A stretch of DNA of 64,000 nucleotides from an uncultured Actinomycetes bacterium (lineage in GTDB: Bacteria; Actinomycetota; UBA4738; HRBIN12), in NCBI GenBank assembly GCA_963775735.1, contig CAVZKD010000007.1, positions 1,394,889 to 1,458,888 of the forward strand. The letters run 5' to 3'. A program made the translations under genes and the position numbers. This document shows positions 34,382 through 37,290 of the stretch, one piece after another; positions within the stretch are counted from its first letter, which is position 1; the number at the start of each line of letters is the position of its first letter. The notes beneath the pieces were generated by a model. It saw only the letters and a list, made by a program, of their open reading frames with translations. It had not been told where the DNA came from and ran no database searches.

Positions 34382-36388
34382 ATGCCCAGCACGAACGACA
34401 AACGCGGACGCTGGCAGGGATTCGATCTCGGCGGTGCGGGGGGCTCCAAGGAGCCCCGCAGGATCCGTTCCTCCCCGTGGTCCTGGGTCCTGGTGTTCCT
34501 CGTCGTGCTCGTCCTGTTCAACTACTTCGCGTCCCCTCGGCCGAACGCGATCACGTACTCGGAGTTCCTCGAGCACGTGGACGGCGGGCGGATCGTCGGC
34601 ACGCTCGAGATCTCCGCCACCTCGGTGAGCGGCACCTATGAGGACTCGACCGGGGAGGTCGGCTTCACGACGACGATCCCCCCGATCCTTCAGGGCACGA
34701 CGTCGCTCACCGACCGGCTCGACGAGGCCGGCATCAGCTACGAGGGCGTGCAGCCGTCGGGGCTGCAGAGCTTCCTGATCGGATGGGTCGCGCCGCTCCT
34801 GCTGTTCGGCCTGCTGTGGTTCTTCCTGGTGCGTCGGATGAGCGGCGCGCAGGCCGGCGCCGCCTTGAACCTCGGTCGCAACAAGGTCCGGATCTACGAC
34901 CGCAAGGAGATGAAGACCACGTTCGCCGACGTCGCGGGCGTCGACGAGGCGAAGGAGGAGCTCAAGGAGATCGTCGAGTTCCTGAGCAATCCGAAGAAGT
35001 ACCAGCGCCTCGGGGGCCGCATCCCGAAGGGGGTCCTGCTCCTCGGACCACCGGGCTGCGGGAAGACGCTGCTCGCGCGAGCCGTCGCCGGTGAGGCGAA
35101 CGTGCCCTTCTTCTTCATGTCGGGCTCCGAGTTCGTCGAGATGTTCGTCGGCCTCGGCGCGGCTCGCGTCCGAGAGCTGTTCCAACAGGCGAAGGAGAAG
35201 GCGCCGGCCCTCGTGTTCCTCGACGAGATCGACACGATCGGCAAGGGCCGCGGGGGTGCGCTCGGCGCGGGGTTCGGCGGACACGATGAACGCGAGCAGA
35301 CGCTGAACCAGCTGCTGGTGGAGATGGATGGGTTCGACGCGAGCGCGGGCGTCATCATCATGGCGGCGACGAACCGGCCCGACGTGCTCGACCCCGCCCT
35401 CGTGCGTCCCGGACGCTTCGACCGCCAGGTCGTCGTGGATCAGCCGGACCTGAAGGGCCGCGAGGAGATCCTCAAGGTGCACGTCCGCGGCGTGGCGATC
35501 GATCCGCTGGTCGACCTGCGCATGCTCGCCGCGCGAACACCCGGGTTCACCGGTGCGGACCTCGCGAACGTGGTGAACGAGGCGGCCCTGCTCGCCGCCC
35601 GCCGGGAGAAGGACGCGGTCACGATGGTCGAGCTCGAGGAGGCGATCGATCGGACGGTCGCCGGGCTCGAGCGCAAGAGCCGCGTGATGTCGGAGAAGGA
35701 CAAGGAGCGCGTCGCCGTCCACGAGATGGGCCACGCGCTGGTGGCCATGACCGCGGCTACGGCGGACCCCGTCCACCGTGTCTCGATCATCCCGCGCGGA
35801 GCCGCGGCGCTCGGCATGACGATGCAGCGTCCCATCGAGGACCGGTACCTGCTGACGGAGCCCGAGCTGCAGGACCGCCTCGCGGTGCTGCTGGGCGGCC
35901 GCACGGCCGAGGAGCTCGTGTTCGACAACGTCGTGTCGACCGGCGCGCAGAACGACCTCGAGCGCGCGACGGAGATCGCTCGGGCGATGGTGACCGAATA
36001 CGGCATGAGCCCGAAGATCGGCCCCCTGTCGTTCGGCAAGGACGGGTTCCGCGGCTCCGCCGGTCGGCTGCTGTACCCGGGCTCCGCCCCGGAGCTCTCG
36101 GACGATCTCGCGGCGCTGGTCGACGAGGAGACGGCCCGGCTCGTGAACGAGGCGCACGACCGCGCCACGGAGGTGCTCGGCACCCACAAACGCATGCTCG
36201 AGCAGCTCTCCGAGATCCTGATCGTGACGGAGGTGATCGACGGCCCGGAGCTGTCCGCCTATTTCGAGGGACTCAAACCGATCCCCTCGAAGGAGGAGCT
36301 TCGGCGCCAGGTCGAGGGCAACGGCCGGCGCGAAGCCACGGAGCGATCCGGACCCGAGATCATCGTCCAGCCGCCGGCACAGTCCTAG
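34382..36388 (+). CDS. ftsH: ATP-dependent zinc metalloprotease FtsH
   Basis: 2 [41 protein letters not shown]. Confidence 0.95.
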
Positions 36389-37290
36389 TCTGGCTCCGCG
36401 GGTTCGACCAACAGGTCGAACCGTCCGCGGAACCGTTCGAGGAACCGATAGTAGTTGCGCTTGGACAACCGGTCGCGCTCGACCGGCGGCGTGGAGTGGT
36501 AGACGCGGTGCTCGTGCCTCGTCACCGGCGCATCGACCACCACCGCCCGCAGGCCCGCGTCTTTGATCCGGAACGAGCACTCGATGTCGGCGGTGCGGTA
36601 CCACCGGAACCGATCGTCGAACAACCCGACATCGCGCAGCACGTCCCGCCGGAAGGCCATCAGGTACCCCTCGATGGCATCGACGTCCGGCCCGGGGCTG
36701 TCGTGGAACTCGTGGAGGTCGTTCGTCGAGATGCCGAACGGCCCGCACACGCCGATCGTCGGGTCCTCGAGCGCTCGCAGGAGCGGTCCGAACGTGTCGC
36801 CGGTCGGCTCGATCGAGCCGTCGACGGCCAGGACGACCCGACCGCGCGATCGAACGAGGCCGGCGTTCCGCGCCGCGCCCCAGCCCGTGCCCGGTTCGAG
36901 CGCAACGACGTCCACCGCGTCGCCGTAGCGTGAGGGGTCCGTCTCGGTCAGGTCCGCGACGACGTACTGCACCGCGCGATCCCCCTCGTTCGCCCGGAAC
37001 CCCGCCAACGCGCGGACGACGTCCTCCGGCCATCCCTCGACGACCCAATGGACGCTCACGTCGACGGACGGGGGGTCGTCGAGGAGTCTCTCGACCTCGG
37101 CGGGCCTGCGACGCTCGGGCGCTCGAGGTTCGACGGGTTCGAAGGACGCGCCCTGCGGACCGTCGATGACTCGGTACCCGAGCTCGGCGATCCGATCACG
37201 GAGCGCGTCGGCGGCGGCGAAGTCCTTCGCGGCGCGGCGTTCCGCCCGTTCGGCGGCCAGCGCGCGGACCTGGTCGGGGACCTCTTCCAC
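36385..37290 (-). CDS. GT2/GT-A glycosyltransferase with N-terminal CysRS anticodon-binding-like domain
   Basis: N-terminal ERAERRAAKDFAAADALRDRIAELGYRVIDGPQG; GT2 motifs GWGAARNAG, VDGS, EGYLMAFRR, FDDRF, DIECSFRI. Confidence 0.8.
   Translation of the reverse strand: MEEVPDQVRALAAERAERRAAKDFAAADALRDRIAELGYRVIDGPQGASFEPVEPRAPERRRPAEVERLLDDPPSVDVSVHWVVEGWPEDVVRALAGFRANEGDRAVQYVVADLTETDPSRYGDAVDVVALEPGTGWGAARNAGLVRSRGRVVLAVDGSIEPTGDTFGPLLRALEDPTIGVCGPFGISTNDLHEFHDSPGPDVDAIEGYLMAFRRDVLRDVGLFDDRFRWYRTADIECSFRIKDAGLRAVVVDAPVTRHEHRVYHSTPPVERDRLSKRNYYRFLERFRGRFDLLVEPAEPD

Follow-up and report, generated by a model that had tools for sequence, protein, structure and literature searches.

Gene and domain architecture

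The DNA stretch analysed here (the window) comprises 64,000 nucleotides of contig CAVZKD010000007.1 (positions 1,394,889 to 1,458,888) in the genome assembly of an uncultured Actinomycetes bacterium (GCA_963775735.1). On its reverse strand lies a gene (36385..37290) encoding a 301-residue protein, in which a copy of the anticodon-reading domain of cysteinyl-tRNA synthetase (CysRS) is followed, through a linker, by a glycosyltransferase (GT) domain of the GT-A fold. The gene was delimited from the list of open reading frames (ORFs), the orthologues and an AlphaFold2 model, and its GTG start is supported by orthologues from 35 other genomes, which align from residue 1 (MxE(A/V)PxxVRxLA...). Three segments, all on the reverse strand, compose this architecture, hereafter referred to as the short form. 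Residues 3–52 (37135..37284) constitute the copy of the C-terminal anticodon-reading α/β domain of CysRS, as identified by PF23493 (CysS_C), alignment with Protein Data Bank (PDB) entries, a comparison of CysRS alignment columns and a domain model. Residues 53–75 (37066..37134) form a linker that varies in length and sequence among the orthologues (columns 66–105 of a 36-sequence alignment). Residues 76–296 (36403..37065) make up the GT-A domain, which is GT2-like according to PF00535 and Foldseek and ends in a conserved basic helix (residues 269–287).

The match to PF23493 covers residues 3–45 and scores 23.4 bits against a cut-off of 23 in the ORF and 26.8 bits in a six-frame search of the genome, and the orthologues reach 39–45 bits (for example, 44.8 for G121:C139 and 44.0 for G147:C172). 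Residues 7–50 align without gaps to residues 415–458 of Escherichia coli CysRS (1li5/1u0b; phmmer, E 6e-6), such that residue n of the window protein corresponds to E. coli residue n+408. Furthermore, a profile built from the N-terminal domains of 33 family members retrieves the C-termini of 29 Actinomycetota CysRS genes with E values from 1e-7 to 6e-20. The GT domain matches PF00535 (Glycos_transf_2) over residues 123–198 with 26.9 bits (cut-off 23.3). An assignment to the mycofactocin glycosyltransferase MftF (TIGR03965) was rejected at 29.9 bits against the equivalog cut-off of 280.

The window protein is not a CysRS. The class I catalytic domain PF01406 has no match in the ORF, and the cysS model TIGR00435 reaches 14.8 bits against a cut-off of 340, at model positions 420–462 only. 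The sole PF01406 match in the genome lies approximately 600 kb away (C7:825253-826179), in a gene that has its own CysS_C end. The first-pass annotation, made from the sequence alone, had read the first ~50 residues as the C-terminal domain of CysRS, running in frame into a GT2/GT-A domain with an atypical DxD position (VDGS), with no CysRS catalytic domain adjacent. Pfam, phmmer and the structural match described below agree on the first point, and the E. coli CysRS string given in that annotation agrees with the printed PDB alignment. The string VLAVDGSIEP is indeed present in the GT domain, and the distance to the nearest PF01406 match bears out the remaining point.

Predicted structure and anticodon-reading residues

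A whole-protein AlphaFold2 model based on the 36-sequence alignment was obtained with a pLDDT of 95.6 and a pTM of 0.84. The N-terminal domain consists of two helices (residues 6–20 and 24–36) and a β-hairpin (residues 39–44/47–52), followed by the linker, modelled at a pLDDT of 83–97, and by the GT-A domain from residue 76. When modelled alone, the first 55 residues reach a pLDDT of 88.5. Foldseek superimposes this isolated domain on 1u0b_B, from the CysRS–tRNA-Cys complex, with a TMq of 0.77, a root-mean-square deviation of 1.3 Å over 46 columns, 48% identity and a probability of 1.00; the next PDB match has an E value of 2.3. These results bear on the simplest alternative, namely that the protein is a generic GT2 enzyme of the cell envelope or secondary metabolism whose resemblance to CysS_C arose by chance or convergence. 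The Pfam score of the window protein, barely above the cut-off, would fit such a view. In contrast, the profile matches to 29 CysRS are reciprocal and extend to E 6e-20, the sole significant PDB match of the domain is 1u0b at 48% identity, and the GT is contiguous with a whole CysRS in the long forms described below. Together, the CysRS profile matches, the 1u0b superposition and the long forms rule out a chance resemblance to CysS_C, and we consider this alternative scarcely credible.

In a 2026 study on E. coli CysRS (PMC13449415), Arg427, Trp432, Asp436 and Arg439 are the residues of the anticodon-binding domain that were targeted, from structure 1U0B, for re-engineering toward a CUA anticodon, and Arg427 is described as contacting O6 of G34. 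The corresponding residues in the window protein are R19, F24, D28 and R31. Their conservation was evaluated in a one-profile alignment combining the N-terminal domains of 33 family members with the C-terminal domains of 29 Actinomycetota CysRS, a set from which a GT locus and a 65-residue contig-edge fragment had been removed. In E. coli numbering, Arg423, Asp436, Arg439 and Asp451 are present in all sequences of both sets (33/33 and 29/29). Position 427 is Arg in all 33 GT proteins and in 27 CysRS, with Lys in the other two. Position 432 is aromatic throughout, being Phe in 30 and Tyr in three GT proteins, and Phe in 15, Trp in 12 and Tyr in two CysRS. Asp431 is found in 32/33 GT proteins and 23/29 CysRS, and Gly455 in 32/33 and 29/29, respectively. 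The Arg/Asp positions that the first-pass annotation had singled out as anticodon readers are thus kept among the homologues, with R, F/Y, D and R in all 33 short forms, and these anticodon-contact positions stay fixed while overall identity within the family falls to 37–45%.

Two nearby positions differ systematically between the two sets. Position 447 (Ile in E. coli) is aromatic in 33/33 GT proteins, as opposed to Val, Ile or Leu in 25/29 CysRS, and position 450 (Glu in E. coli) is Glu in 23/29 CysRS versus Val (15), Arg (7), Ala (3) or another residue in the GT proteins. In summary, the window copy shares with the CysRS C-terminal domain (E. coli ~410–461; 1U0B, PF23493) the fold, the 48% identity and the residues R423, R427, D431, aromatic 432, D436, R439, D451 and G455. 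It differs in having an aromatic residue at 447, in the loss of the conserved Glu450 and in its location, as it heads a different enzyme in which the catalytic, stem-contact and helical domains of CysRS are missing.

The same small domain also occurs in an unrelated setting. A 990-residue public protein from a dinoflagellate transcriptome record (P0199) contains 11 tandem CysS_C copies and nothing else recognisable (PF23493, 128.8 bits; 11 stretches matched by the GT N-terminal profile). This observation suggests that CysS_C is used elsewhere as a repeatable RNA-binding module.

Putative active site of the glycosyltransferase domain

Comparison of the whole model with the PDB returned 356 chains at E ≤ 1e-3, headed by GT27 and GT2 enzymes (Foldseek, probability 1.00). 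The GT-A matches include human ppGalNAc-T2 (4d0z; E 2.9e-12, TMq 0.62), further GT27 enzymes and the fucosyltransferase WrtF (9omm; E 1.9e-11). Three conserved motifs, all encoded on the reverse strand, define the putative active site. The first is a reduced DxD site, D157-G-S-I-E161 (36808..36822), recognised in the 36-sequence and PDB alignments. D157 and E161 are invariant (36/36), whereas position 159 is mostly Ser, otherwise Cys, His, Ala or Val, and never Asp. In the phmmer alignments, D157-G-S corresponds to D-A-D of 6p61 and D-A-H of ppGalNAc-T1, placing Ser at the second acidic/His position. The second motif is Y231-R-T-A-D235 (36586..36600), in which Y231, R232, A234 and D235 are invariant in the 36-sequence alignment. 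The stretch YRTADIECSFR aligns with the WGGENLEISFR region of ppGalNAc-T1 (phmmer, PDB), and D235 occupies the position of the 'ED' catalytic-base motif of GT2 enzymes, which makes it a candidate base. The third is a C-terminal His/Arg motif, H259-E-H261-R262 (36505..36516), with H261 and R262 invariant in the same alignment; by analogy with the ppGalNAc-T enzymes, these two residues are candidates for the third metal ligand and the diphosphate contact.

All 36 family members share D157, E161, D165, Y231, R232, A234, D235, H261, R262, S276 and N279. A broader set of 54 sequences, long forms included, has G136, G183 and R215 without exception and N142, D157, E161, G186, D235, S239 and N279 in at least 90% of its members. 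Judging from these alignments, the GT site is under strong constraint despite its reduced D-x-(S/C/H/A/V)-x-E motif, and the invariant catalytic-site residues, together with the confident fold model, indicate that the domain is probably active. With the GT2/GT27 GT-A enzymes (4D0Z, 1XHB, 9OMM, 6P61) it has in common the GT-A fold, an Asp that aligns with their metal-site DxD/DxH, and the 'xED/ENxE...SFR' region, to which YRTADIECSFR corresponds. It differs from them in its low identity (15–20% only), the Ser at the second metal position, the conserved basic C-terminal helix and the lack of a lectin or membrane domain.

In some proteins, the GT domain is followed by a His-rich C-terminal tail with HxH repeats, such as HDHDHNHDD or PHTHxHQHWPDHxHEHxHYH (P0140, P0157, L019, L020, L024, L029 and L037). 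Such tails occur in some Actinomycetota short forms, including several orthologues from the family labelled f1 in our genome set, and in Roseiflexaceae long forms, and they may bind metal.

Fusion of the same glycosyltransferase to complete CysRS

An observation new to this analysis is that, in Chloroflexota and other lineages, a second, complete CysRS carries the same GT domain at its C-terminal end. All nine representatives of this long form (709–818 residues) carry PF01406 at approximately residues 15–330 (E 1.7e-51 to 1.2e-96), followed by the GT domain, which matches PF00535 with 25–72 bits; P0143 and P0155 are shorter, N-terminally cut pieces of the long form. Eight of the nine exceed the cysS equivalog cut-off over the full model length (TIGR00435; 355–436 bits versus 340). 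In these eight, the class I signature motifs HIGH and KMSKS are intact in the alignment. Both motifs are degenerate in the ninth, P0179, which fails the cut-off at 235 bits and keeps CysS_C and the GT. The loss of the motifs with retention of these two domains implies that cysteine activation is dispensable while the tRNA-reading part is retained. Eight of the nine long forms have a CysS_C segment with equivalents of R423, R427, D436, R439 and D451, of which P0192 has Lys at R423 and R427. The CysS_C–linker–GT module is 29–36% identical to the window protein and displays the same D-x-S-x-E, FYRxxD and RHxHR motifs. The difference lies in front of it: the long forms (709–860 residues) have a full CysRS with its catalytic domain at residues 15–325, whereas all that the window protein has of CysRS is the final 50 residues.

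By name, the long forms derive from Roseiflexaceae, SAR202, Candidatus Dormibacteria and other Chloroflexota. When species-representative genomes were scanned with three aligned GT parts, 487 loci emerged; among the best 80 are those of Kouleothrix aurantiaca COM-B, Dictyobacter kobayashii Uno11, Oscillochloris, Ktedonobacteria, Dormibacteria and many Dehalococcoidia. The fused ORF spans 802 residues in Dictyobacter and 753 in a Dehalococcoidia chromosome. ORFs of 730, 725 and 787 residues occur in metagenome-assembled genomes (MAGs) labelled Nitrospinota, Acidiferrales and Micrarchaeia, respectively, labels that need care. D. kobayashii Uno11 and K. aurantiaca COM-B are cultured carriers. The long forms are annotated merely as 'cysteine--tRNA ligase'. 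Each of the five Chloroflexota genomes checked encodes one or two stand-alone CysRS-family proteins besides the fused one, and at least one stand-alone CysRS per genome fits the catalytic family better than the fused protein does (349–423 versus 302–333 bits). The presence of a better-matching stand-alone enzyme argues that the fused CysRS is an extra copy and not the housekeeping enzyme.

The pairing of a GT with a CysRS-type enzyme also raises the alternative of a mycothiol-like cysteinyl-glycoside pathway, in which the GT would make the sugar acceptor and the CysRS-type ligase would add cysteine. The long form would then be a two-step enzyme, and the short form would keep a piece of the partner. 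MshC of mycothiol synthesis is a CysRS paralogue according to the title of Sareen et al. 2002, as cited in PMC7278568. As in the MshA/MshC pair, a GT is combined here with a CysRS-derived protein in Actinomycetota. The genome encodes an MshA-type GT over the cut-off (481.7 versus 462.5), a single CysRS-family gene and no MshD over the cut-off. None of the 41 genomes of the order has an MshC over the cut-off, and the GT gene has an LmbE-type deacetylase and SigH/RsrA in its vicinity. In contrast, the CysRS parts fused to the family's GT score as cysS and not as MshC across their full length, including the anticodon-binding parts; all nine long forms fall below the MshC cut-off (TIGR03447; 147–239 bits versus 485.1, or 187–239 bits in the eight that pass cysS). 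MshC is not known to have the anticodon-binding end, and the short form keeps exactly this piece, which is useless for cysteine ligation. Furthermore, MshA and BshA are GT-B enzymes, whereas the family has a GT-A domain, and three genomes (G035, G036 and G040) hold both the GT and an MshC-like paralogue (360–377 bits), so the two do not show a complementary distribution. We regard this pathway as quite improbable. Across the order, four genomes have an MshC-like paralogue, at 260–377 bits.

Distribution of the family

Of 8000 proteins scored in a word-indexed search, 2223 reached E ≤ 1e-3. The top 120 of these comprise 299–313 residues, are 74–100% identical and in many cases were already annotated with PF23493 and PF00535. 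An exhaustive profile search yielded 328 clusters (50% identity) at E ≤ 1e-30. Among the best 150 of them, at least 88 combine CysS_C with the GT, and 10 show the same combination with a longer N-terminus; the rest comprise 34 clusters of GT only (many of them fragments), 17 with longer N-terminal parts, and P0199, which is without a GT. The ORF spans 300 residues in a MAG labelled Actinomycetota. The fusion, whose restriction to the source assembly the first-pass annotation had seen as a possible objection, is found across genomes, protein collections and clusters.

Genome tallies include eight unpublished genomes (G029, G037, G119, G182, G086, G041, G058 and G155), and no statement rests solely on these. 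Of 41 genomes from the same order, the source genome included (G000), 33 have a match to the GT part and 31 over the full length; of the eight others, two belong to family f8 and are 94% complete, and six have a completeness of 61–89%. In a sample of the phylum, 73/401 genomes matched at E ≤ 1e-20, concentrated in seven families. By family, the matches are 22/22 in f1, 2/2 in each of f2, f6 and f7, 16/21 in f14, 8/10 in f16, 18/21 in f18, and one each in f52 and f53. No match was found in this sample in f8 (0/3), f9 (26 genomes), f15 (19), f19 (31), f20 (13), f21 (28) or f31 (16). The f18 genomes (for example, G134, G147 and G121) have three CysS_C matches each, corresponding to two CysRS-sized frames and the GT, and the f16 genomes, which carry a GT-only form, have two CysRS-sized CysS_C matches. 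It is conceivable that a second CysRS works in trans with the GT.

The distribution is relevant to a further alternative, in which the N-terminal domain, a remnant of a CysRS–GT fusion, binds no RNA and instead has a structural or protein-binding function, packed against the GT or attached to CysRS or a different partner. The short form could plausibly have arisen by truncation of a long form, the systematic changes at positions 447 and 450 would fit a new interface, the GT-only forms make the domain appear dispensable, and the linker and domain are confidently modelled as one body with the GT (pTM 0.84). Under this alternative, the four base-contacting residues and R423, D451 and G455 would not be expected to stay fixed at 37–45% identity, nor does it readily account for the persistence of the domain in at least 88 of the best 150 clusters. 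A remnant without RNA binding is, in our judgement, distinctly unlikely.

Gene neighbourhood

Upstream of the GT gene and in the same orientation lies a gene for a 139-residue stand-alone cyclic nucleotide monophosphate (cNMP)-binding protein (37310..37729, reverse strand; PF00027, 67.3 bits, E 1.2e-18), whose stop codon is 19 bp from the GTG. The first-pass annotation had described this neighbour in the same terms, and had raised possible cNMP control of the enzyme. In the genus and family of the window, the order is the cNMP gene, the GT, a convergent FtsH gene, SigH, RsrA and an LmbE-type deacetylase, and in family f1 the cNMP gene lies within 0.8 kb upstream of the GT in all 19 loci that have an upstream flank. 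It is outside the 1.5-kb flanks in all six loci of f2, f6 and f7, which belong to the same order (a homologue is located 2.4 kb away in L058) and is found in 0/15 distinct stretches from f14, f16, f18 and f53. With the adjacency confined to f1, cNMP control is no feature of the GT family as a whole. The cNMP gene is a probable operon partner in f1 only, and cNMP control, if real, would by this gene order be local to that one family.

The FtsH gene (forward strand, ending at 36388) and the GT gene (reverse strand, ending at 36385) converge, with stop codons overlapping by 4 bases. In a small genome of the window's family (L040), FtsH is lacking at this position and sigH-rsrA directly follows the GT. 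In the window, SigH, RsrA and LmbE are encoded at 32306..34243 (reverse strand); the first two exceed their cut-offs (TIGR02947, 261 bits versus 251.55; TIGR03988, 64.6 versus 62.5), and LmbE is below all thiol-pathway cut-offs. Control of the GT by SigH/SigR was considered and rejected: the motif GGAAT-N17-19-GTT has a single match in the window, at 13686, far from the GT, compared with 1.34 expected by chance. Farther along the reverse strand, an 824-residue ORF (38949..41423) appears by eye to encode a UvrA-type ABC ATPase, with two ABC signatures and zinc-finger-like CxxC pairs.

Other families show other contexts. In f18 and f14, a short-chain dehydrogenase/reductase and two MaoC-like dehydratase genes precede the GT, and an extracytoplasmic function (ECF) sigma/anti-sigma pair follows, then secE, nusG, rplK and rplA (Pfam assignments for L047). 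The ECF sigma gene directly follows the GT in 10/10 distinct f14/f18 loci. Its identification as SigH was rejected at 78 bits versus 251.55, which leaves a generic ECF factor with perhaps no relation to the SigH encoded close to the window gene. The GT-only genes of f16 are accompanied by dapA, a MaoC-like gene and an AHSA1-like gene. The long forms of two Chloroflexota genomes are flanked by major facilitator superfamily, Na/H exchanger, enolase-like and transketolase genes in one case and by DAO, OCD, MeaB, DUF429 and HPF genes in the other; the two neighbourhoods have no family in common and no evident link to tRNA modification.

These contexts, together with the fold comparison, concern an alternative in which tRNA-Cys serves as a signal. 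The GT would then glycosylate another acceptor, for instance a protein, an envelope precursor or a small molecule such as an intermediate of a thiol pathway, and its activity would be tuned to the cysteine supply by charged or uncharged tRNA-Cys. Such a sensor would account for the conserved anticodon residues, as well as for the GT-only orthologues, which would be unregulated versions. Moreover, the closest solved folds act on proteins, and the neighbours of the GT in this order are linked to thiol stress (SigH, RsrA and the LmbE-type deacetylase). It leaves unexplained, however, why the GT of other phyla is joined to CysRS paralogues that are whole and apparently active. In addition, no conserved partner gene hints at an alternative acceptor, and no SigR/SigH-type promoter motif is located near the GT gene. 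A sensing role of this kind seems fairly unlikely to us.

tRNA-Cys as the proposed target

The host genome has a single tRNA-Cys(GCA) gene among its 53 tRNA genes. The possibility of a second, dedicated tRNA-Cys was discarded on this basis. A 72-nucleotide BLAST query found one tRNA-Cys in each of four of the five Chloroflexota genomes and none in the fifth, in a search that is insensitive and does not provide evidence of absence. The genome also contains a tRNA-Sec (UCA) at G000:C7:2585943-2586037, the anticodon of which has C35 and A36 in common with tRNA-Cys.

The GT is the constant element of the family, while the CysRS part ranges from a complete enzyme through a catalytically degenerate one and the isolated anticodon reader to none at all. 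The portion kept most frequently is useless for cysteine activation, yet in CysRS it reads G34-C35-A36; this suggests that the CysRS-derived part is a tRNA-Cys targeting module and does not serve cysteine activation. Docking on tRNA-Cys gains independent support from the fusion of the same GT to complete CysRS paralogues in other phyla. Based on these domain combinations, the family very probably works on or with tRNA-Cys. The analysis establishes the domain identities, folds, conservation, distribution and CysRS fusion, and from these we infer tRNA binding, glycosyl transfer and the use of the tRNA as acceptor. The more specific proposal is that the enzyme binds tRNA-Cys through its GCA anticodon and glycosylates an acceptor on the same tRNA molecule; in our estimation, it has an even chance of being correct.

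In the proposed mechanism, the protein would act as a soluble GT-A enzyme whose N-terminal 50 residues are a paralogous copy of the CysRS reader of G34-C35-A36. This domain would dock on the GCA anticodon of tRNA-Cys, before or after charging by the housekeeping CysRS. The GT domain, with its putative metal site (D157/E161), candidate base (D235) and H261/R262, would then use a nucleotide sugar as donor and attach its sugar to an acceptor on the tRNA. Because the linker (residues 53–75) is short and modelled as ordered, an acceptor nucleoside in the anticodon arm would be more probable than the cysteinyl group at the 3' end.

Several observations weigh against this proposal. In seven of the eight matched f16 genomes and in one f52 genome, the match begins at query residue 57–63 (L050, L052 and L053 were aligned), and in the long form P0232 the CysS_C segment is deleted; the GT can therefore exist without an anticodon reader. 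In CysRS, the small domain acts beside a helical domain that is missing here. The conserved Arg/Asp set also represents the most conserved residues of CysS_C generally, and could have a role in fold stability. The nearest solved GT folds in the Foldseek comparison are protein O-GalNAc transferases, which have protein acceptors. Among the neighbouring genes, none is a conserved functional partner and none points to tRNA modification. The host tRNA-Cys is ordinary-looking, with the loop CU-GCA-AA and U at the discriminator position. Attachment of the sugar to hydroxylated i6A37 (io6A37) was considered as a variant and gained no support: MiaA is present, but MiaE was not found in this 83%-complete genome. 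Finally, we know of no glycosylated nucleoside in bacterial tRNA-Cys.

Relation to known systems and implications

If the proposal is correct, the closest known mode of action is that of QTGAL (B3GNTL1) and QTMAN, to which the window protein would be related by functional analogy only. According to a preprint, these enzymes glycosylate Q34 of vertebrate tRNA-Tyr and tRNA-Asp (bioRxiv 10.64898/2026.06.28.735034). They resemble the proposed enzyme as glycosyltransferases with an anticodon nucleoside as acceptor, but they are eukaryotic and act on queuosine, which tRNA-Cys (GCA) does not carry. To our knowledge, no domain derived from an aminoacyl-tRNA synthetase (aaRS) is present in QTGAL or QTMAN. 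A second parallel is GluQRS/YadB, the glutamyl-queuosine tRNA-Asp synthetase, an aaRS paralogue turned tRNA-modifying enzyme. In GluQRS, as proposed for the window protein, an aaRS piece was recruited for tRNA modification; GluQRS keeps the catalytic domain and loses the anticodon-binding domain, the reverse of the arrangement described here.

The first-pass annotation had known of no characterised bacterial enzyme with this architecture, and a full-text literature search likewise found none. Proteins of this architecture are already deposited in public collections, but their names are generic or automatically assigned (for example 'glycosyltransferase', 'cysteinyl-tRNA synthetase' or 'Cysteinyl-tRNA ligase anticodon binding/Glycosyl transferase family 2'). 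That search gave no bacterial description of a glycosylated tRNA-Cys nucleoside or of a glycosylated cysteinyl-tRNA, and none is known to us. The architecture joins known kinds, namely reused aaRS-derived modules and GT-A enzymes, and there is a real chance of functional novelty. Tentatively, the family may represent the first bacterial tRNA-directed glycosyltransferase system, in which a GT is aimed at tRNA-Cys by a recycled anticodon reader in the short form or by a dedicated CysRS paralogue in the long form. The product would be a glycosylated anticodon-arm nucleoside or a glycosylated cysteinyl-tRNA for a non-ribosomal pathway. We regard this wider reading as possible but doubtful.

Both domains are well known, and their union is without a characterised member, yet it is common in soil-type Actinomycetota lineages and in Chloroflexota. 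The natural series of CysRS with GT, dead CysRS with GT, anticodon reader with GT, and GT alone points to tRNA-Cys as the target, and the cultured carriers make this question directly testable. If tRNA-Cys or Cys-tRNA-Cys is indeed modified, the family would represent either a new class of tRNA modification in bacteria or a tRNA-dependent pathway that is itself new, and a 45-residue aaRS module would prove reusable as a portable, anticodon-specific address tag.

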